Assembly: GCA_038078555.1 (NCBI GenBank)
Contig: JBBTYQ010000001.1
Coordinates: forward strand, 156,158 to 220,157
Length of the DNA: 64,000 bases
Origin: Patescibacteria group bacterium
Lineage (GTDB): Bacteria; Patescibacteriota; Minisyncoccia; UBA6257; UBA9933
Direction: 5' to 3'
A model generated the notes under the pieces. That model saw only the letters and a list, made by a program, of their open reading frames with translations, was not told the origin of the DNA and made no database searches. Positions 44,343 to 60,028 of this stretch are shown piece by piece. Both the position numbers and the translations under genes were made by a program. Numbering within the stretch: position 1 is the first letter of the stretch; each line of letters starts with the position of its first letter.

Positions 44343-46895
44343 ATGTTTGAATTAAAATTGCAAAATTTATATTTTGACGAACCGCGCCTTAAAATGGGGC
44401 ATTCTTCGCGTTTCTTCTCGCGGCTGATTATCTATTCTTTTTACGTGATTTTATTTGTTGGTGACATTACTTTTTTGCTTTCGAGCGCCCGGCAGTTATT
44501 TTTTGTCGGATTATTGATTTCTTTATTTTTAACCGACCGTTTGATTCACTTTGGCCAGGCGGAAAGATCATTAGTTGGTTTAATCCGTTATTTACCAAGG
44601 CTTAGCCGTCGAGGCAAATCATCCGATCCGGGTAGAATCAATGTTGCTAATTTTTTTACGCCGAAAAGTTTTTATATTTTAGAAAAATCTTTCGAAAAAG
44701 CTTTATTTTTAGGCGGAAATTTTCATCTTTATTTACTGGAAAATATTTTATCTCAAGCGGAAATTCAAAAGGGATTTTTGCGACTGGATGTTTCTTTGAA
44801 AGATGTTAATCAGAAGCTTAGAGAGTTTATAAAAGAAGCCGGAGATAAGAAATGCAACCCCTTAGAACTGTGGAGCAAATTAGACATGCTGGCAAAATCA
44901 GCTTTTGTTTTTGCTTTTTACAATAAAAATCGGTTTGTTGCTCCGTGGGATTTATTTTCCGCTTTGGCAAATATCGAAGATCCCTTAATTAGCCGCTTTT
45001 TTGGCATATTTGCAATTGACGCGTCTGATTTGGAAAAGACCATGATTTTTTCCCGATTCGACAAAAAAATTGATTTTTTTAGGAGAGCGCCGAAAGTGTT
45101 AGGCGGATTTGTCCGAAAACCGTTCCGATTGCGTCATCGGGTGATAAATCGGGCTTGGACCAGCCAGCCGACTCCTGTTCTCGATAAATATAGCGTTGAT
45201 TTTACTGATTTGGCGCGCGCTGGCGGTCTTGGTTTTTTGATCGGCCATCAACAAGAATATGATCGCTTAGTAGATGTTGTTTCAAGGCTTAGCAAACCCA
45301 ATGCCTTGCTTGTTGGCGATCCGGGCAGCGGTAAAGAGGCAATTGTTTCAGCCTTGGCTTTTGGAATTGTTAAAGACGAAGTGCCGGAAGCGATTTTCGA
45401 TAAGCGATTGGTTTCTTTGGAAATTGGCAATCTTATTTCCGGAGCGCCGCAAGAGGAAATTTCCAAAAGAATTAATAAAATTGTTGAGGAAATAATTTTA
45501 TCCGATAATATTATTCTTTATATTCCAGATATTCATAATTTGGTTAAAACATCAGGGCAAGGCCTTATGAGCGCGTCGGATATTTTAATGCCGATTATCA
45601 GTAATGATGCGTTTCCGGTAATCGGCGCCACATATTCCCGAGAATTTAAGCAATTTATAGAGCCCTTGAGCGATTTTTCCAATAATTTTGAAATAATCCG
45701 AGTAGAGGAAATTTCTGAAGAAGAAGCAATGAGAGTTTTGGTTTATGAAAGCTTGATTTTAGAAAAACAGTATAAAATAACTATAAGTTTTAAGGCAGTT
45801 AAACAAGCGGTAATTTTAGCTCATAAGCATTTTCATCAGAAGCTCTTGCCTTCAAGCGCTGAAGATATTTTAAAAGAATCTTTGACGAGCGCTTACAAAA
45901 ATGGAAATAAAATTTTGCGAGCCGATGATGTGACGGAAATTGCTCAGCGAAAAATCAATGTGCCTTTGCAGACGGCTGAAAAAGGCGAAGCGGAAAAACT
46001 TTTAAATCTTGAAGAATTTATTCATAAAAAATTTGTTGACCAAAAAGAGGCCGTCAGCGTAGTCTCTCGAGCCTTAAGAGAGTATCGCAGCGGCCTTTCA
46101 AGAAAATCCGGACCAATTGCCAGTTTTTTATTTGTCGGGCCGACCGGCGTAGGAAAGACAGAACTTTCTAAAATTTTGTCAGAAATTCAATTTGGTTCAG
46201 AATCTCAGATGGTTCGTTTTGATATGTCTGAATATCAGGCCAAAGAAAGCATTTTTAGGTTTATTGGTTCAGTTGACGGAAAGATTTCCGGCACTTTGAC
46301 CGAATCGGTGCTTAACAAGCCGTATTGTTTGATTTTGCTGGATGAGTTTGAAAAAGCCCATCCCGATATCTTGAATCTTTTTTTGGCAGTTTTTGATGAC
46401 GGCCGATTGACTGATTCCACGGGAAGAACTGTTAATTTTAATAATACTATTATAATTGCCACCTCAAACGCTCATTCCCATTTTATTAAAGAAAAAATCG
46501 AAGCCGGCGAAGCTATTGGAAAAATCAACGAAGAGCTAAAGAAAAAATTAACCGAGTATTTCCGGCCGGAACTGCTTAACCGGTTTTCCGGCATAATTGC
46601 TTTTAAAAATCTTTCGCCGGCGGATATTAAGGCAATTGCCGAATTTCAGCTGAAATCATTGGCAAAATCTGTCGAAGGAAGCCATGGCATCAGTCTTAAT
46701 TTTAATCAGGCGGTTATCGGGAGAATCGCCGAACTTGGTTATGATCCGGCTTTTGGCGCTCGGCCGCTTCGCGGCGTGATATCCGATAAAATTAAAAGCG
46801 TCATGGCAGAAAAAATTTTAAGAGGTGAAATTAATCGGGGCAATATCGTGGAGTTGAATTTAGAGAATAATGAGGTAAAATTCTTAATAAGATGA
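44343..46895 (+). CDS. membrane-anchored Clp/Hsp100-family AAA+ ATPase (degenerate D1, intact D2)
   Basis: N-terminal TM helices and Clp_N-like repeats. D1 has GDPGSGKEAIV / ILYIPDIH in place of GxPGVGKT / ILFIDEIH. D2 has the canonical GPTGVGKTEL and LILLDEFEKAH, plus GARPLRGVI. Confidence 0.8.
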   Translation: MFELKLQNLYFDEPRLKMGHSSRFFSRLIIYSFYVILFVGDITFLLSSARQLFFVGLLISLFLTDRLIHFGQAERSLVGLIRYLPRLSRRGKSSDPGRINVANFFTPKSFYILEKSFEKALFLGGNFHLYLLENILSQAEIQKGFLRLDVSLKDVNQKLREFIKEAGDKKCNPLELWSKLDMLAKSAFVFAFYNKNRFVAPWDLFSALANIEDPLISRFFGIFAIDASDLEKTMIFSRFDKKIDFFRRAPKVLGGFVRKPFRLRHRVINRAWTSQPTPVLDKYSVDFTDLARAGGLGFLIGHQQEYDRLVDVVSRLSKPNALLVGDPGSGKEAIVSALAFGIVKDEVPEAIFDKRLVSLEIGNLISGAPQEEISKRINKIVEEIILSDNIILYIPDIHNLVKTSGQGLMSASDILMPIISNDAFPVIGATYSREFKQFIEPLSDFSNNFEIIRVEEISEEEAMRVLVYESLILEKQYKITISFKAVKQAVILAHKHFHQKLLPSSAEDILKESLTSAYKNGNKILRADDVTEIAQRKINVPLQTAEKGEAEKLLNLEEFIHKKFVDQKEAVSVVSRALREYRSGLSRKSGPIASFLFVGPTGVGKTELSKILSEIQFGSESQMVRFDMSEYQAKESIFRFIGSVDGKISGTLTESVLNKPYCLILLDEFEKAHPDILNLFLAVFDDGRLTDSTGRTVNFNNTIIIATSNAHSHFIKEKIEAGEAIGKINEELKKKLTEYFRPELLNRFSGIIAFKNLSPADIKAIAEFQLKSLAKSVEGSHGISLNFNQAVIGRIAELGYDPAFGARPLRGVISDKIKSVMAEKILRGEINRGNIVELNLENNEVKFLIR

Positions 46896-51353: not shown

Positions 51354-51717
51354 TGGTGGAAATGGCGGGAATTGAACCCGCGTCTGGCAGTGAATTTATA
51401 AAATATCTACAAGCTTAGCCTAATTTAAATTTAGAATTAAGAATTATGAATTAGGCAAAACATTCTCAATTCTTTGCCGTTATTGTCTTCCGATTTCCGG
51501 CAGGAGCGGAACAAGCTCAAATTATTACACCCGAAACCCTCAAATTGAGCGTTTAAGGACGGATGCTGCATTAAGCAAAAGCTAACGCAGGAGTCCCGCT
51601 CAGCGGGACTAATCTGTTTTTGGCAGATATTTTGTTTAATCCGATGATTTATGAGGTGACGAATTGTCCTCAGCTTGCTGTTTTATAAATGTGCCGCCAT
51701 CAAATCCAATCATTCCC
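51354..51717 (-). ncRNA. ssrA: tmRNA (SsrA)
   Basis: The 5' end GGGAATGATTGGATTTGATGG pairs with the 3' end ...CATTTCCACCA, including the G3:U pair. T-arm GCGGGTTCAATTCCCGC. The internal tag ORF GCC AAA AAC AGA TTA GTC CCG CTG AGC GGG ACT CCT GCG TTA GCT TTT GCT TAA encodes AKNRLVPLSGTPALAFA. It is adjacent to smpB. Confidence 0.9.
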
Positions 51718-53423: not shown

Positions 53424-55070
53424 ATGAAACTAATGATTAAATCAATAATTGAAAATTATCTTAAAAAAATTATTAAAGAGCCGGTAGCAATAGAAGTTTT
53501 TGCGCCAGAACAGGAACAATTCGGACACTATTCAACCAGCGTTGCTTTAAAGTTAGCAAAAGAAAAAAAGCAAAGCCCGATGGAAATCGCAAATAAAATA
53601 GTGTCAGGTGTTAAAGGTCAGCCTCGACGTCAAAGAGTCGGGGCTCCGACCGAAACATCGGAGATGTCAGATATCGTGAGTAAGATTGAAGTTGTTCCGC
53701 CCGGCTTTATAAATTTTTGGATTTCTCCAGAAGCTTTGCAGGATGAGCTTAAAGAAATTTTGAAGAAAAAAGAAAAATATGGCAGGTTGAATGTCAAAGG
53801 TAAAATCTCAAAGGTTCAACTAGAATATGTCTCCGCCAATCCAACAGGACCTTTGACTTTAGCTAACGGCCGAGGCGGATTTTTTGGCGATGTTTTAAGC
53901 AATATTTTGGAATTTTCCGGCTGTAAAATTGAGCGGGAATATTATGTTAATGATACCGGCAATCAGATATTCACTTTAGGCCGGTCGATTTTGGCTCTAA
54001 GGGGATTAATTGACTCTGAAGAAAAATTTTATAAAGGGCAATATTTGAAAAAATGGGCGGAGGGAAAATCTGCTTTAATAAAAAGATTTGCCAATAATCC
54101 CTTGAAGTTAGGCCAATTAGCAGCCAAAGATTTTCTGGCGGAAATAAAAAAAGTTTTAAACAAAGGCGCTGATATATGTTTTGACAGGTGGACTTCGGAA
54201 GATAAGCATATTCATAAAAAAAGTTTTATCACAAAAACAATGGAAGTTTTTAATCGTACCGGTTTAGTTTATGAAAAAGAAGGAGCGGTTTGGCTAAAAA
54301 CTTCAAAATACGGCGATGATAAAGATAGAGTATTAATTACCAGCGATGGTTTGCCTACTTATTTTTTAGCAGATGCCGGCCATTTTTTGGAAACCAAGTC
54401 CCGCGGTTTTAATTCGAAAATAATGATTTTAGGCCCCGATCACTATGGCTATGTCAAAAGAATTCAAGCAGCCGCTAAAATCATTGGCCTGGAAAAATTA
54501 GAAATTATTATTACTCAAGCCGTTAGGTTAATCAAAGATAATCAGGAAGTTAAAATGTCCAAGCGGAAAGGCGAATTTGTTGCTTTTGAAGAATTATTGA
54601 AAGAAGTAGGAAAAGACATCGCTAGATTTTTCTTTTTAATGCATTCTCCGGACAGCCATATGGATTTTGACCTTTCATTAGCCAAAGAGCAATCGATGAA
54701 AAATCCGGTTTATTATTTGCAATATGCGGCAGTAAGGGCGCAAAGTATTTTAAATAAATCAAATGTCAAAAATAAGATGTCAAATGCCAATTTAAACCTA
54801 TTAAATACTCCTGAAGATATAAATTTAATGCGTTTGCTTGCGCGGTTTCCCGAAAGCGTTGAAGAATCAAGAAATAAATACAGTCCGCAAATTTTAGCGC
54901 GTTATTCTCTGGATTTAGCGAGAGAGTTTCATAATTTTTATGAGCGGGAGCGCATTATTGGGGAGGCGCCAGAACTTGCGGTAGCGAGGCTTCAATTAAT
55001 TAAAGCAGTCAGAATAGTTTTTGGAAATTTGTTTAATTTATTGGATGTCAGCTATCCAAAAAAAATGTGA
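53424..55070 (+). CDS. argS: arginine--tRNA ligase
   Basis: PPGFINFW, SANPTGPLTLANGRGG (HIGH-region equivalent), GPDHYGYV and MSKRKGEFV (KMSKS-like). The start may be the second ATG at 53433. Confidence 0.95.
   Translation: MKLMIKSIIENYLKKIIKEPVAIEVFAPEQEQFGHYSTSVALKLAKEKKQSPMEIANKIVSGVKGQPRRQRVGAPTETSEMSDIVSKIEVVPPGFINFWISPEALQDELKEILKKKEKYGRLNVKGKISKVQLEYVSANPTGPLTLANGRGGFFGDVLSNILEFSGCKIEREYYVNDTGNQIFTLGRSILALRGLIDSEEKFYKGQYLKKWAEGKSALIKRFANNPLKLGQLAAKDFLAEIKKVLNKGADICFDRWTSEDKHIHKKSFITKTMEVFNRTGLVYEKEGAVWLKTSKYGDDKDRVLITSDGLPTYFLADAGHFLETKSRGFNSKIMILGPDHYGYVKRIQAAAKIIGLEKLEIIITQAVRLIKDNQEVKMSKRKGEFVAFEELLKEVGKDIARFFFLMHSPDSHMDFDLSLAKEQSMKNPVYYLQYAAVRAQSILNKSNVKNKMSNANLNLLNTPEDINLMRLLARFPESVEESRNKYSPQILARYSLDLAREFHNFYERERIIGEAPELAVARLQLIKAVRIVFGNLFNLLDVSYPKKM
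53621..53663 (+). repeat. GC-rich twin-hairpin element in frame inside argS
   Basis: GCCTCGAC-gtcaaaga-GTCGGGGC directly followed by TCCGAC-cgaaaca-TCGGAG. It encodes part of the extra ...GQPRRQRVGAPTETSEM... segment. Confidence 0.7.
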
Positions 55071-55209: not shown

Positions 55210-55614
55210 ATGGCAAAACTGGAAAAACTCGCGCTTATTCTTATCGGCCTTATCGCCGGAATTGTTTTGATTTTTTTGGGCAAGCCGCAAGTCGGCGATA
55301 ATGCCTCAAAAATTACTTTAATTATTGAAGGCAAGGAATATGCATTGCTTAAAGCCGAGACTTCTCTTGAAAAAATGCGCGGCCTTTCCGGAATTACCGA
55401 ACTTAAAAACGCCGATGGCATGATTTTTTATTTTAAGCCGGCGCAAAAAGTTTCTTTTTGGAACAAAAATACTCATTTTGATTTGGAACTTATCTGGATG
55501 AAAGATAGTAGGGTTGTCGGCCGTGATTTTCTGCCGTCGGAAGAAAGGACTGGATTAGTTATAAAAAATTCTCCGGTTGAAGTTGATTGGGTTGTGGAAT
55601 TAATAAAATCTTGA
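55210..55614 (+). CDS. DUF192-family protein with N-terminal TM/signal
   Basis: EKMRGLSG...ADGMIFYF...SFWNKNTHFDLELIWM matches the pattern typical of DUF192. Confidence 0.7.
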   Translation: MAKLEKLALILIGLIAGIVLIFLGKPQVGDNASKITLIIEGKEYALLKAETSLEKMRGLSGITELKNADGMIFYFKPAQKVSFWNKNTHFDLELIWMKDSRVVGRDFLPSEERTGLVIKNSPVEVDWVVELIKS

Positions 55615-56065: not shown

Positions 56066-56152
56066 ATTTTTGTTTAATTACGGGCTTGGTTTATTTAAAA
56101 TCAAGCCCTTTTTTATTAAAAATTTTGTGATAAAATTAATTATATTTATATT

Positions 56153-59100
56153 ATGCTTAAAAATCTTAAACACTTAACGCCTGCGGAAACCGAAGAAGAA
56201 GTATTAAAATTTTGGCAAAAAGACAAAACTTTTGAAAAATCCCTTCAGCAAGCTCAGGGCAAGTCTTTAGATAAAAAAACGTCCAAGGGCGATTTTGTTT
56301 TCTATGACGGTCCGCCTTTTGCCACTGGCTTGCCGCATTACGGCCATATTTTAACCAGTATTTTGAAAGATGTTATTCCTCGATATCAAACAATGAAAGG
56401 CAAAATTGTGCCGCGCCGTTGGGGCTGGGATTGCCATGGTTTGCCCATTGAAAACGAAATTGAGAAAAAACTTGGCTTAAAAACCAAAAAAGACATTGAA
56501 AATATCGGAATAGGAGTATTTAACGAATCAGCTCGAGATAATGTTTTGCAATATGCCGACGAATGGAAAAAAATCATTCCCAGAGTAGGCCGCTGGGTTG
56601 ATATGGAGCGGGATTATAAAACAATGGATTCGAATTATACAGAATCGGTCTGGTGGGTTTTTAAATCGCTTTTTGATAAGGGCTTGGTATACGAAGGCAA
56701 TAAATCAATGCATGTTTGTCCGAGGTGCGAAACTCCTTTGGCAAATTTTGAGCTTAATCAGCCCGGCGCGTATCGTGATATTACCGATATTTCAATCACT
56801 GTAAAATTTGAACTTCTGGAAGAAAAAAATACTTATATTTTAGCTTGGACCACTACGCCTTGGACTTTACCGGGCAATGTGGCGCTCGCAATTAATCCAA
56901 AAATAGATTATGTAAAAGTTTCTAAAGGCAGTGAAAATTTAATTTTAGCAAAAAGCCGGTTGGCTATAATTGAAGGTGAATATAAAATTTTAGAAACTTT
57001 TAAAGGTAAAAATTTAATCGGAAAAAAATATCAGCCGGTTTTTGATTATTATTCTTCTGCCGGCGGACAATTAAAAAACAGGGAAAACGGCTGGAAAATT
57101 TATCCTGCTGATTTCGTTTCAATCGAAGAAGGCACCGGCATTGTCCATATTGCTCCGGCTTTTGGCGAAGATGATATGAAGTTGGGCAATAAATTTAATC
57201 TGCCTTTTGTCCAGCATGTTTCAACAAGCGGAAAATTTAAGCCCGAAGTAAAAGATTTTGCCGGCATGGATGTTAAGCCGAAAGAAAATCACCAAATAAC
57301 CGACATTGAAATTATTAAATGGCTTGCCAAAGAAAATAAGCTTTTCAGCAAACAAAAAATTGTTCATTCTTATCCTCATTGTTGGCGTTGTGATACTCCG
57401 CTTCTAAACTATGCCAGCACTTCGTGGTTTGTTAAGGCGACGGATATCAAGAAAAAACTCATTGAGAATAATAAAAAAATAAACTGGATTCCAGGCCATA
57501 TTAAAGAAGGCCGCTTTGGCAAATGGTTGGAAGAAGTTCGCGATTGGGCGATTTCCCGCACTCGCTTTTGGGGCGCGCCGCTTCCGGTTTGGCAATGCAA
57601 CAAATGCGATAAAAGAGAAATTATCGGTTCATTGGAAGAACTTAAAAATAAAATTGAGAAATCAGGCAATAAATATTTTGTTATGCGCCATGGCGAAGCT
57701 CAAAGTAATGTTAAAAATATTGCCAGCTGCAATGTAAAAAATAGCCATCATCTTACGGAAAAAGGGAAAAAGCAGGCGATTGCCGCGGGCAGTAAATTAA
57801 AAAAAGAGAAAATAGATTTGATATTTGCTTCCGATTATTTGCGCACTAAAGAAACTGCCGAAATTGTTGCCGATAAACTGGAAATTTCAAAAAAAGATTT
57901 AATTTTTGACCAAAGGTTGCGCGAAATTAATGTTGGCATATTTGACGGCCAATCAGCCGGAGAATATCACAAATATTTTTCTTCGCTTGAAGAAAAATTT
58001 TACAAAAATCCGCCAAAAGGAGAAAATTTAACAGAGTTGAAAAATAGGGTTTCAGAATTTTTATACGAAATAGATAAAAAATATTCTTGTAAGAATATTT
58101 TAATTGTTTCTCATGAATATTCTATCTGGCAGATGTTTGCCGGAGCTCTTGGCGCCAATCCCAAAAAAGCGGTTGAAATAAAGTATAAGGATGATTTCAT
58201 AAAAACCGCTGAAATTAAAAAACTTGATTTTATCCCCATTCCTCATAATAAAAATTATGAGCTTGATTTTCATCGGCCTTATATTGATGAGATGGTTTTC
58301 CCTTGTTCCAATTCAGCAGGTTCAGGGAAAGCTTGTGGCGGAGAAATGACGCGCATTAAAGATGTTTTTGATTGCTGGTTTGAGTCAGGCTCAATGCCTT
58401 ATAGCCAAATTCATTATCCGTTTGAGAATAAAAAATGGTTTGAGGATAATTTTCCGGCGGAATTTATCGCTGAAGGCATCGATCAGACTCGCGGTTGGTT
58501 TTACACGCTTTTGGTTTTATCCACTGCTTTGTTTAATAAGCCGGCTTATAAAAATGTGATTGTAAGCGGCATTGTTTTAGCCCAAGACGGCCAAAAAATG
58601 AGCAAGCGCTTAAAAAATTATCCTGACCCGATGGAAATTGTAAATAAATACGGCGCGGATGCTCTAAGGCTTTATTTGCTTTCTTCGCCATTGGTGCGCG
58701 GTGAAAATCTGAATTTTTCCGGCCATGGCGTTGACGAAGTTTATAAGAAAGTCATTTTGCGTTTCTGGAATACTTATAAATTTTATGAGCTATATAACAA
58801 TCAAATTTCTAGTTCTAAAAACAAAATTCCAAATCCAAATAATGTTTTGGACAAATGGATTATTGCGCGCCTTAAGGAGTTAGTAAGCGAAACTTCAAAA
58901 TTTTTGGATAGCTATGAATTAGACCGCGCCAGCCGGCCGATATTTGATTTTGTCGACGATCTTTCCACCTGGTATATCAGAAGATCGCGTGAAAGGTTTA
59001 AGGGGGACAGCAAAGATAAAAAATCTGTCGCAACTGTCACTAGTTTTGTGCTTATTGAATTTAGTAAGGTCACTGCGCCTTTTATGCCTTTTATTAGCGA

Positions 59101-59692
59101 AGGTATTTATAAGTCATTGACTAGCGGAAGAAGCGTTCATTTGGAAAATTGGCCTAAAGCCGCTAAATTAACTCCTCAAGACAATAAGATAATTGAAAAT
59201 ATGAAAAGCGCGCGGCAAGTCGCTTCTTCGGCGCTTCAGGCCCGGGCTAAAAACGGCATTAAAGTCAGACAGCCGCTGGCCAGCTTAAAAATAAAAAATG
59301 AAAAATTAGAAATTCGAGATCAGAGCGATTTTTTGAATTTAATTAAAGACGAGATTAATGTTAAAGAAATTATTTTTGATAAAGATATTAAAGAAGAAAT
59401 CGAGCTTGATTTAAAAATCACCGCCGAGCTAAGGCAGGAGGGAATAGTAAGAGATATAAGCAGAATGGTTCAGGAATTAAGGCAGGATGCGGGGTGTAAG
59501 CCTCAACATAAAATCGATTTGCATATTGAAGTGCCCGAGGAAATTAAAAACGCGCTCTTGAATTACATCAATGAATTAAAAGAAAAAGTAGGCGCAAAAA
59601 ATATAGAATTTCGCCGTAATGATAAATTTGACGCGGAAATTGAAACAAAAATCGATGATTCCAAAATTTGGATAGGAATAAAGAAATTATAA
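56153..59692 (+). CDS. ileS: isoleucine--tRNA ligase (type 2) with nested histidine-phosphatase domain
   Basis: PPFATGLPHYGHIL (HIGH), the CP1 editing region (TTTPWTLPGN), KMSKRLKNYPDP (KMSKS), and Cys pairs CWRC, CNKC and C..C.GEM. Residues of about 507-702 are RHG-type histidine phosphatase (FVMRHGEAQSN...ASDYLRTKETA...LIVSHE). Confidence 0.9.
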   Translation: MLKNLKHLTPAETEEEVLKFWQKDKTFEKSLQQAQGKSLDKKTSKGDFVFYDGPPFATGLPHYGHILTSILKDVIPRYQTMKGKIVPRRWGWDCHGLPIENEIEKKLGLKTKKDIENIGIGVFNESARDNVLQYADEWKKIIPRVGRWVDMERDYKTMDSNYTESVWWVFKSLFDKGLVYEGNKSMHVCPRCETPLANFELNQPGAYRDITDISITVKFELLEEKNTYILAWTTTPWTLPGNVALAINPKIDYVKVSKGSENLILAKSRLAIIEGEYKILETFKGKNLIGKKYQPVFDYYSSAGGQLKNRENGWKIYPADFVSIEEGTGIVHIAPAFGEDDMKLGNKFNLPFVQHVSTSGKFKPEVKDFAGMDVKPKENHQITDIEIIKWLAKENKLFSKQKIVHSYPHCWRCDTPLLNYASTSWFVKATDIKKKLIENNKKINWIPGHIKEGRFGKWLEEVRDWAISRTRFWGAPLPVWQCNKCDKREIIGSLEELKNKIEKSGNKYFVMRHGEAQSNVKNIASCNVKNSHHLTEKGKKQAIAAGSKLKKEKIDLIFASDYLRTKETAEIVADKLEISKKDLIFDQRLREINVGIFDGQSAGEYHKYFSSLEEKFYKNPPKGENLTELKNRVSEFLYEIDKKYSCKNILIVSHEYSIWQMFAGALGANPKKAVEIKYKDDFIKTAEIKKLDFIPIPHNKNYELDFHRPYIDEMVFPCSNSAGSGKACGGEMTRIKDVFDCWFESGSMPYSQIHYPFENKKWFEDNFPAEFIAEGIDQTRGWFYTLLVLSTALFNKPAYKNVIVSGIVLAQDGQKMSKRLKNYPDPMEIVNKYGADALRLYLLSSPLVRGENLNFSGHGVDEVYKKVILRFWNTYKFYELYNNQISSSKNKIPNPNNVLDKWIIARLKELVSETSKFLDSYELDRASRPIFDFVDDLSTWYIRRSRERFKGDSKDKKSVATVTSFVLIEFSKVTAPFMPFISEGIYKSLTSGRSVHLENWPKAAKLTPQDNKIIENMKSARQVASSALQARAKNGIKVRQPLASLKIKNEKLEIRDQSDFLNLIKDEINVKEIIFDKDIKEEIELDLKITAELRQEGIVRDISRMVQELRQDAGCKPQHKIDLHIEVPEEIKNALLNYINELKEKVGAKNIEFRRNDKFDAEIETKIDDSKIWIGIKKL

Positions 59693-59695
59693 AAA

Positions 59696-60028
59696 ATGGC
59701 AACAATAGAAGATTTTCAAAAACTTGATATTAGAGTTGGGAAAATAATAAGCGTGGAAGATTTTCCGGAAGCGAAAAAGCCGATGTATAAGTTAAAAATT
59801 GATTTTGGCGCGGAAATTGGCGTTAAACAATCTTGCGCGCAATTAACGCAGAATTATACAAAAGAACAGCTTATAGGAAAGCAAATTTTAGGGGTGGTTA
59901 ATTTTCCGCCGCGCAAAATTGGCCCGGAAATATCAGAGGTTTTAACGCTTGGCGTTGCCGATGAAAACGGCAATTGTGTTTTAGCGGTGCCGGATAAAGA
60001 TGTTCGGGCAGGAGCAAGATTATATTAA
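59696..60028 (+). CDS. stand-alone tRNA-binding domain protein (CsaA/Trbp111-like)
   Basis: FQKLDIRVGKIISVEDFPEAKKPMYKLKIDFG...LIGKQILGVVNFPPRKIG. Confidence 0.85.
   Translation: MATIEDFQKLDIRVGKIISVEDFPEAKKPMYKLKIDFGAEIGVKQSCAQLTQNYTKEQLIGKQILGVVNFPPRKIGPEISEVLTLGVADENGNCVLAVPDKDVRAGARLY

Follow-up and report, generated by a model that had tools for sequence, protein, structure and literature searches.

A 64,000 nucleotide (nt) stretch of the genome of an ultra-small Patescibacteria group bacterium (assembly GCA_038078555.1, contig JBBTYQ010000001.1, positions 156,158 to 220,157), referred to here as the window, contains an ileS gene for isoleucyl-tRNA synthetase (IleRS) in which a whole histidine phosphatase is nested. 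The gene is a single uninterrupted open reading frame (ORF) of 1179 amino acids (aa), and the phosphatase lies between the halves of the synthetase. A sequence-only reading of this DNA had reported both the continuous frame with its IleRS landmarks and the nested domain. The features of the gene are given below, with conservation of the synthetase motifs (HIGH, KMSKS, TTTPWT, Cys and linker) counted over 118 homologs, and catalytic-residue and identity counts taken from 120 nested IleRS homologs. CP1 and CP3 are connective peptides of the synthetase.

56153-59692, plus strand: ileS, type-2 IleRS with nested phosphatase, 1179 aa (ORF, TIGR00392, PDB matches, AlphaFold2 model)
56336-56347, plus strand: HYGH (HIGH) signature, aa 62-65 (H62, Y63 and G64 invariant, H65 at least 90%)
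56849-56866, plus strand: TTTPWT editing-site motif in CP1, aa 233-238
57596-57607, plus strand: first Cys pair of the CP3 zinc knuckle, C482/C485 (at least 90% conserved; the CxxC is also in insert-free relatives)
57659-58261, plus strand: inserted segment, about aa 503-703, a whole PhoE/PspA-like histidine phosphatase plus a linker of about 11 aa (FIPIPHNKNYE), from alignment with insert-free IleRS
57677-58186, plus strand: His_Phos_1 (PF00300) core, aa 509-678
57686-57694, plus strand: RHG motif with R512, nucleophile H513 and G514 (R in 119/120, H in 120/120, G in 112/120)
57842-57844, plus strand: R564, second phosphate-binding Arg (120/120; aligns with the RT motif of PspA and TIGAR)
57923-57925, plus strand: E591, putative proton donor (116 E and 4 D of 120; aligns with the E of 'IIEIDHG' in PspA)
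58112-58114, plus strand: H654, second catalytic His, in SHE (119/120; aligns with the SH of PspA)
58304-58336, plus strand: second Cys pair of the CP3 zinc knuckle, C718...C728 (C718 at least 90%; aligns with the C..C of insert-free IleRS)
58595-58609, plus strand: KMSKR (KMSKS) signature, aa 815-819 (K815 and K818 invariant, M816 and S817 at least 90%)

The host protein is the housekeeping IleRS of a patescibacterium of Parcubacteria type and scores 879.9 bits against TIGR00392, the ileS equivalog (cut-off 621.4). Its Pfam content is tRNA-synt_1, Anticodon_1 and, at the C-terminus, DUF5915, with His_Phos_1 between two tRNA-synt_1 halves. The best sequence and fold matches are IleRS2 and the yeast, human and T. 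thermophilus enzymes, not those of type 1. The full-length AlphaFold2 model has a predicted local distance difference test (pLDDT) score of 90.9 and a predicted template modelling score of 0.85, and its IleRS body superposes on type-2 IleRS structures with template modelling (TM) scores of 0.82-0.90, normalised to the target. The CP1 editing site is intact, because T233, T234, T235, W237 and T238 are invariant. H332 and D341 of the CP1 editing region are invariant or nearly so among the homologs. With the motifs for synthesis and editing in place, the synthetase part of nested IleRS looks fully functional, and from these motifs and from synteny orthologous with insert-free ileS we infer that it aminoacylates tRNA-Ile. 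The protein does not belong to the ileS_w_GNAT family (NF040702; 310.5 bits, cut-off 1999) and has no GNAT Pfam match.

In the alignment with solved IleRS, residue 499 pairs with chain residue 490 and residue 705 with 498, so that there are about 200 residues where other IleRS have about 7. Five insert-free Parcubacteria IleRS, with 36–52% identity to the body of the protein, read '...EELGRKMK/DLHRPMID...' across the junction (slash), which places the insert boundaries at about aa 503-703. The sequence-only reading had put about 196 extra residues at 57671-58258, which is exactly aa 507-702, at the site of a short linker; this stands, with the boundaries refined. The insertion point is between the C482/C485 and C718/C728 pairs of the zinc knuckle. 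CP3 comprises residues 473-534 in the domain map of C. albicans IleRS, bears a Zn motif in T. thermophilus IleRS, and varies structurally among IleRSs (PMC7191050). Alignment to the C. albicans enzyme and this map place the insertion site in the CP3 subdomain. Correspondence with the leucine-specific domain of leucyl-tRNA synthetase (LeuRS) was considered and dropped, that domain being located just before KMSKS.

The insert belongs to branch 1 of the histidine phosphatase superfamily (PF00300), as is evident from the profile hidden Markov model (HMM) match, the RHG motif, the second Arg, acid and His, and the fold. The HMM match has an E-value of 1.5e-33 and reaches 116.6 bits with the full protein as query and 121.7 bits with only the insert (cut-off 21.7), the match spanning positions 2-171 of the 194 in the profile. 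In a phmmer search of the PDB, R512 and H513 fall on R8 and H9 of PspA (4IJ5) and N519, which is kept in 118/120 nested homologs, falls on N15. H9 is the residue mutated in PDB entry 4IJ6. The RT..TA, E...G and SH motifs line up with those of PspA, and the catalytic set is also in register with TIGAR. All of the histidine-phosphatase motifs quoted from the sequence alone are present, and the catalytic residues do align with those of solved phosphatases.

The insert is also modelled with confidence on its own (pLDDT 92.3), and its blocks have pLDDT scores of 94-97 in the full-length model. R512, H513 and G514 are placed after a modelled strand at 507-512. Foldseek matches the modelled insert to PspA, PhoE, Rv2419c, CobC and TIGAR with TM scores of 0.76-0.80 (0.76 to PspA) and root-mean-square deviations of 2.2-3.0, the E-values being about 1e-13 for 4IJ5, 1H2E, 4QIH and 6E4B. 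The linker FIPIPHNKNYE-LD joins this domain to the second half of the synthetase, with F693, P697, H698, E703, L704 and D705 at least 90% conserved and pLDDT scores of 94-95 over residues 693-705 in the full-length model. A linker both conserved and confidently modelled argues for a fixed, rather than floppy, attachment of the phosphatase.

Mutases of this superfamily carry 'ERHYG' and 'HGNS', and the 'E...G...G' pattern is typical of phosphatases. The insert has 'REINVG' and 'SHEYS' at the spots of the two mutase motifs, and its motifs look like those of the phosphatase subgroup, not the mutase subgroup. Mean identity across the homologs is 58% in the insert and 60–67% in the synthetase body. 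The conservation of the catalytic residues (96–100%) points to purifying selection on the phosphatase. Together with the HMM match, the aligned residues and the models, it supports the earlier proposal of a nested, probably active phosphatase in the catalytic body of the enzyme.

Spread and age of the nested architecture

The 120 closest IleRS clusters, drawn from NCBI, JGI, ENA and Logan assemblies, have 56–69% identity to the protein and all carry PF00300 along with IleRS domains. The loci were scanned with one genome per species, giving at least 425 relatives, and in the best 80 of these (80 species representatives) the phosphatase is between the ileS halves in every case. Labels among the 80 loci include Wolfe-, Nomura-, Kaiser- and Zambryskibacteria, Paceibacterota and others. 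Where the locus is not cut by contig ends, ileS is a single ORF of at least 1000 aa in 61 out of 65, with a median of 1189 aa. No second, free copy of the phosphatase was found within about 7 kb in any of the best 80 nested loci. The nested architecture is the standard IleRS of many Parcubacteria lineages. Its presence in at least 80 species, with conservation like that of the host protein, means that the insert is ancient.

The insert is more AT-rich than its host, with a GC content of 32.5% against 38.0% for the rest of the gene and a third-position GC of 28% against 36%. This probably reflects the lysine-rich sequence of the insert. A recent horizontal insertion, to which this composition might have pointed, is rejected, the insert being common to the 80 or more species and as conserved as its host. 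A chimeric assembly, the doubt raised in the sequence-only reading, is excluded by the recurrence of the same architecture, with continuous ORFs, in more than 100 independent assemblies. An intein or self-splicing mobile element should have a HINT fold, a C or S at the N-terminal junction, and HN then C, S or T at the C-terminal junction; the fold is instead that of His_Phos, and the junctions (KSGN/KYF and PHN/KNYELD) do not follow these rules, so this candidate was also rejected.

In a few cases the ileS frame is broken in or near the phosphatase domain (loci L019, L037, L082 and L084; proteins P0011, P0094, P0002 and P0069). These are short gene calls on long contigs, and the breaks are probably sequencing frameshifts, although split or pseudogenised ileS may be among them. 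One contig with a nested ileS (L024) is labelled Spirochaetia and many third-party annotation records are labelled 'uncultured Candidatus Saccharibacteria', despite carrying a Parcubacteria-type IleRS. Mis-binning or generic labelling of metagenome-assembled genomes is the probable cause.

The proteins became public in about 2015 with the GW2011 Wolfebacteria genomes, and UniRef includes them (P0130). The exact 1179 aa protein is in NCBI (P0121) as 'class I tRNA ligase family protein [Patescibacteria group bacterium]'. Whether the architecture is common and already annotated, which the sequence-only reading had named as a refuting condition, has a divided answer. It is common in Parcubacteria and visible in databases through precomputed Pfam domains, and NF040702 is a precedent for nested enzymes in IleRS. 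The names given to the proteins go no further than 'isoleucine-tRNA ligase' or 'class I tRNA ligase family protein', and no describing paper was found in full-text literature on IleRS or aminoacyl-tRNA synthetases and histidine phosphatases, a search for which most subscription journals are outside coverage, so that absence is not proof.

Free phosphatase genes and insertions in related synthetases

A search with the insert alone finds stand-alone Patescibacteria proteins of about 190 aa with 40–51% identity to it. These free proteins are collinear with residues 505-692, from the first strand through to the C-terminus. All eight of the free homologs checked on their contigs are encoded directly upstream of an insert-free type-2 ileS, on the same strand, with spacing from an 11 bp overlap to a 25 bp gap, and the ileS products there are 946-975 aa long. 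The conserved context is smpB / argS - HisPhos - ileS - (x) - recO, and the argS-HisPhos-ileS synteny was seen in loci L001-L009 and L092-L094. No free phosphatase gene is present anywhere in the 64 kb window. The two forms are collinear and mutually alternative, so that nesting and operon pairing are two states of one gene pair. On the sequence comparisons, this alternation is a Rosetta-stone relationship.

Relatives of the insert were ranked in 1.84 billion representative proteins. With few exceptions, the closest are either IleRS proteins with the nested domain or short free forms. The best matches that are long proteins consist nearly entirely of IleRS, whole or fragmentary, and carry the domain at the same site (78 of 95 mapped domains). 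One of the best matches is a valyl-tRNA synthetase (ValRS) with four copies of the phosphatase. Out of the 120 closest relatives of this four-copy protein, 71 carry 1-4 nested copies and, where named in the sources, are from Gracilibacteria or Peregrinibacteria. The ValRS copies are at the homologous position after WGxRIP in 63 cases and after the QWF motif in 8, and the RHG is kept in 83/87. Examples with 1-4 His_Phos domains are P0300, P0391, P0395, P0416 and P0422, among others, with lengths of up to 1626 aa. In a rough neighbour-joining tree the ValRS-nested copies form a clade of their own, apart from a clade of the IleRS-nested and free forms. This indicates a second, separate association with the paralogous synthetase. 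No free phosphatase neighbour of valS was found in the two loci examined. The phosphatase family is genomically tied to class Ia synthetases by three independent kinds of evidence: close operon pairing, nesting in IleRS and separate nesting in ValRS.

Rarer extra insertion sites are found in IleRS between WFESG...YPF and FPADFIAEG-DQTRGWF, and after KMSKS. In P0278 and P0325 the His_Phos domain occurs at two or three separate IleRS sites. Other IleRS relatives carry unrelated domains at the second site: an AAA_18 P-loop kinase-like domain in P0367 and a GNAT domain in P0324, which also has an IS200-like Y1_Tnp domain inside CP1. The AAA_18 domain of P0367 matched APS kinase, shikimate kinase and Pnkp1 weakly (E 0.02-0.06). 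The ValRS relatives P0412, P0447 and P0421 list PF04480 (DUF559, endonuclease-like) or PF00216 (HU DNA-binding), which suggests still more insertions in these synthetases.

The window shares with these loci the backbone of tmRNA, argS and ileS, and in related loci smpB occupies the neighbourhood that corresponds to the tmRNA of the window. The neighbouring features are as follows.

51354-51717, minus strand: tmRNA gene, upstream of argS (Rfam 149.9 bits; tag peptide AKNRLVPLSGTPALAFA)
53424-55070, plus strand: argS, conserved upstream neighbour (ORF; in relatives the free phosphatase gene is between argS and ileS)
59696-60028, plus strand: tRNA_bind (Trbp111/CsaA-like) ORF, 110 aa (PF01588, E 1.3e-17)

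The tRNA_bind ORF starts 4 nt past the ileS stop and is probably co-transcribed with ileS. Its product may be a trans-acting tRNA-binding helper of the nested IleRS. In insert-free relatives there are small unannotated ORFs at this position. Between a 115 aa ORF and ileS there is a terminator-like hairpin with a T-tail (56082-56108, plus strand), followed by promoter-like hexamers (56125-56154, plus strand), both being consensus matches only, and ileS may start its own transcription unit. No T-box or other RNA leader was found 5' of ileS, the tmRNA being the only RNA match.

A DUF192 (PF02643) ORF is upstream of ileS in the window (55210-55614, plus strand). Two Gracilibacteria-type loci also have a DUF192 gene directly 5' of valS, which encodes a nested phosphatase in only one of them (L090, 495-962; L091, 4492-4953). 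DUF192 could be a second recurrent neighbour of synthetases, or this could be a coincidence. A free Y1_Tnp gene and a HIT gene are located near argS-HisPhos-ileS in L004 and L005. Elsewhere in the window, an 850 aa ORF (44343-46895, plus strand) has ClpB-like D2 AAA_2 and D2-small domains at aa 591-837, and its first 590 or so residues have no Pfam match at E≤1e-5.

Function of the nested phosphatase

This IleRS has long included, as an integral part, a whole histidine phosphatase with intact catalytic residues. The comparative evidence for functional coupling is unusually strong, and it is fairly probable that the domain is an active PhoE/PspA-like phosphomonoesterase functionally coupled to IleRS, with no particular substrate being specified. 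Catalysis would run by way of a phosphohistidine at H513, the phosphate being bound by R512, R564 and H654 and E591 serving as the acid. The phosphatase would be a dedicated partner of the synthetase and an accessory hydrolytic site for it, provided in trans by the operon partner or in cis by the nested domain. It might, speculatively, remove a phosphomonoester from something that the synthetase handles.

If there is such coupling, the chances are about even that the substrate is a nucleotide-type ligand, with similar odds for adenine-nucleotide products and for a tRNA acceptor end that is 2'/3'-phosphorylated or pyrophosphorylated and so cannot be charged. Phosphate removal from tRNA ends was already among the speculative roles named in the sequence-only reading. 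Another small molecule is a possible but less probable substrate, and the phosphorylated KMSKS region of the IleRS itself, suggested by analogy with the targets of HipA/HipT, is an unlikely one. Damaged tRNA ends could come from tRNase toxins or from toxSAS/CapRel-type pyrophosphokinases. That the nested phosphatase is a synthetase-resident site of tRNA 'end-healing' or detoxification is doubtful. Were it so, the adjacent AAA_18 and GNAT domains of some relatives would be further countermeasures directed at the acceptor end or the adenylate. A comparison with PADLOC for defence similarity gave no match for the phosphatase or GNAT domains and a marginal one for the kinase-like domain.

Several observations weigh against a coupled phosphatase, and some of them against a tRNA-directed role in particular. 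The insert does not reach the cut-off of any functional subfamily model: it scores 85-90 bits with dPGM_arch (cut-off 225), 78-83 with CobC (162.9), 70-74 with PspA (350), 44-51 with SixA (74.5) and 80-84 with the RNase H/acid phosphatase model NF005567 (326), and the free form P0013 is likewise far under all NCBIfam equivalog cut-offs. Models for gpmA-type cofactor-dependent phosphoglycerate mutase (dPGM) give at most 49 bits (cut-offs 305-421). Since every equivalog cut-off is missed, canonical dPGM, CobC, PspA or SixA identity is rejected. The structural neighbours of the insert are all small-molecule phosphatases, and we know of no member of the histidine phosphatase superfamily that acts on RNA ends. 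Conserved synteny inside one phylum can persist without functional coupling. The ValRS arrays, with 2-4 apparently active copies in tandem, fit poorly with one cis site for each bound tRNA and better with dosage or a general phosphatase. Furthermore, the unrelated domains nested in these synthetases (GNAT, AAA_18, Y1_Tnp, DUF559 and HU) mean that they may simply tolerate insertions.

The same observations bear on the strongest alternative, in which an independent housekeeping phosphatase, acting for example on phosphates of sugars, glycerate or amino acids or in nucleotide salvage, moved from a neighbouring gene into a permissive loop of ileS and has nothing to do with aminoacylation. It would be retained only as both functions are needed, through genome streamlining, co-expression or constructive neutral evolution. 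The free gene beside ileS provides a simple route for such relocation, the sequence neighbours are small-molecule phosphatases as the structural ones are, and CP3, which varies among IleRSs, is plausibly permissive (PMC7191050). Mere relocation does not readily explain why the same family was recruited again, in another lineage, into the homologous loop of a paralogous synthetase and into further sites. Nor does it explain why the family is apparently confined to positions beside or inside synthetases, as the eight free copies are, or why the linker is conserved and confidently modelled in place of a floppy tether. The small-molecule neighbours, the tandem ValRS copies and the tolerated inserts keep this alternative in contention, although it is rather unlikely.

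A built-in protein phosphatase, which would free its own synthetase of an inhibitory phosphate, for instance one on the serine of the KMSKS loop, is very unlikely. HipA-family toxin kinases phosphorylate such sites in GltX and TrpS, and the superfamily includes the protein phosphatases SixA, PGAM5 and Sts. This idea would explain both the tethering in cis and the limitation to particular synthetases, and the insertion sites (S1, S2 and S3) flank the second half of the Rossmann fold that bears KMSKS. However, the neighbourhoods examined contain no kinase partner, PADLOC gave no defence or toxin matches, the weak similarity to SixA is under its cut-off, and the nearest structures are small-molecule enzymes.

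It is still less probable that the insert is a non-catalytic module, a structural, tRNA-binding or metabolite-sensing appendage that has kept the phosphatase fold. Nested synthetase domains do often serve binding, and the 201 aa of the insert sum to a net charge of +8, but such a charge is unremarkable in a lysine-rich proteome in which the IleRS body has +17. Pseudo-enzymes usually lose their catalytic residues, whereas the nucleophile His and the phosphate-binding residues are kept here at 96–100% in the IleRS and the RHG in nearly all of the ValRS copies. An artefact, be it assembly chimerism or an intein-like or mobile element yet to be removed, has the AT-richness of the insert in its favour and has a negligible chance of being correct, given the identical architecture across NCBI, JGI, ENA and Logan assemblies, the continuous frames, the absence of a HINT fold and of intein junctions, and the conservation equal to that of the host.

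Few enzymes have been studied as thoroughly as aminoacyl-tRNA synthetases, and their known built-in extra chemistry is essentially editing, that is deacylation. In large parts of Patescibacteria, two class Ia synthetases are associated with a second hydrolytic chemistry that is unrelated to editing. Functional coupling would imply that aminoacylation in these bacteria involves a phosphorylated species absent from textbook schemes, perhaps a tRNA end that is damaged or modified by a toxin, a nucleotide product or an enzyme in phosphorylated form. Were end-healing to be the function, class Ia synthetases would have a third catalytic activity beside synthesis and editing, and the histidine phosphatase superfamily its first member directed at RNA. 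Without functional coupling, these proteins would still be among the clearest natural cases of an essential enzyme that tolerates the insertion of whole enzymes, up to four in tandem, in a loop of its catalytic core. Such tolerance would be useful for protein engineering and for understanding how functions are packed in genome-reduced bacteria. There is also a consequence for annotation. Many of these proteins receive no name beyond 'class I tRNA ligase family protein' from the NCBI Prokaryotic Genome Annotation Pipeline, and the phosphatase inside them could be overlooked or wrongly counted when metabolism is reconstructed.

Comparison with known systems

The branch-1 phosphatases PspA (4IJ5), PhoE/YhfR (1H2E, 1EBB), Rv2419c GpgP, CobC and TIGAR are like the insert in their fold, their RHG/N/R/E/H set and their size of about 190 aa. 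The insert differs from them in being nested without free termini, in scoring under the equivalog cut-offs, and in belonging to a subfamily tied to class Ia synthetases. A fusion of comparable kind is the RNase H/acid phosphatase of the Rv2228c type (NF005567), in which a CobC-like His_Phos domain is joined to a nucleic-acid enzyme. There, however, the fusion is terminal and not nested, and the partner is an RNase H rather than a synthetase.

Among the synthetases, prolyl-tRNA synthetase (ProRS) has the INS editing domain, with the free-standing YbaK/ProXp as its counterpart, and alanyl-tRNA synthetase (AlaRS) has an editing domain with the counterpart AlaX. In both systems an accessory hydrolase is nested or separate depending on the lineage, as with the free upstream and nested forms of the phosphatase. 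Unlike the insert, these domains are aminoacyl-ester deacylases with another fold and proven editing, while the predicted chemistry of the insert is phosphomonoester hydrolysis. NF040702 'ileS_w_GNAT' is a curated precedent of an IleRS with an extra nested enzyme, and GNAT and phosphatase occur together in P0324. The domain type is different from that of the window protein and, judging by the profile offsets, so is the position of the GNAT. The CP1 editing domain of IleRS, ValRS and LeuRS is likewise a hydrolytic 'connective peptide' in the same Rossmann fold. CP1 is universal and ancient and acts on mischarged tRNA, whereas the nested phosphatase is restricted to Patescibacteria, has a different fold and is located in CP3.

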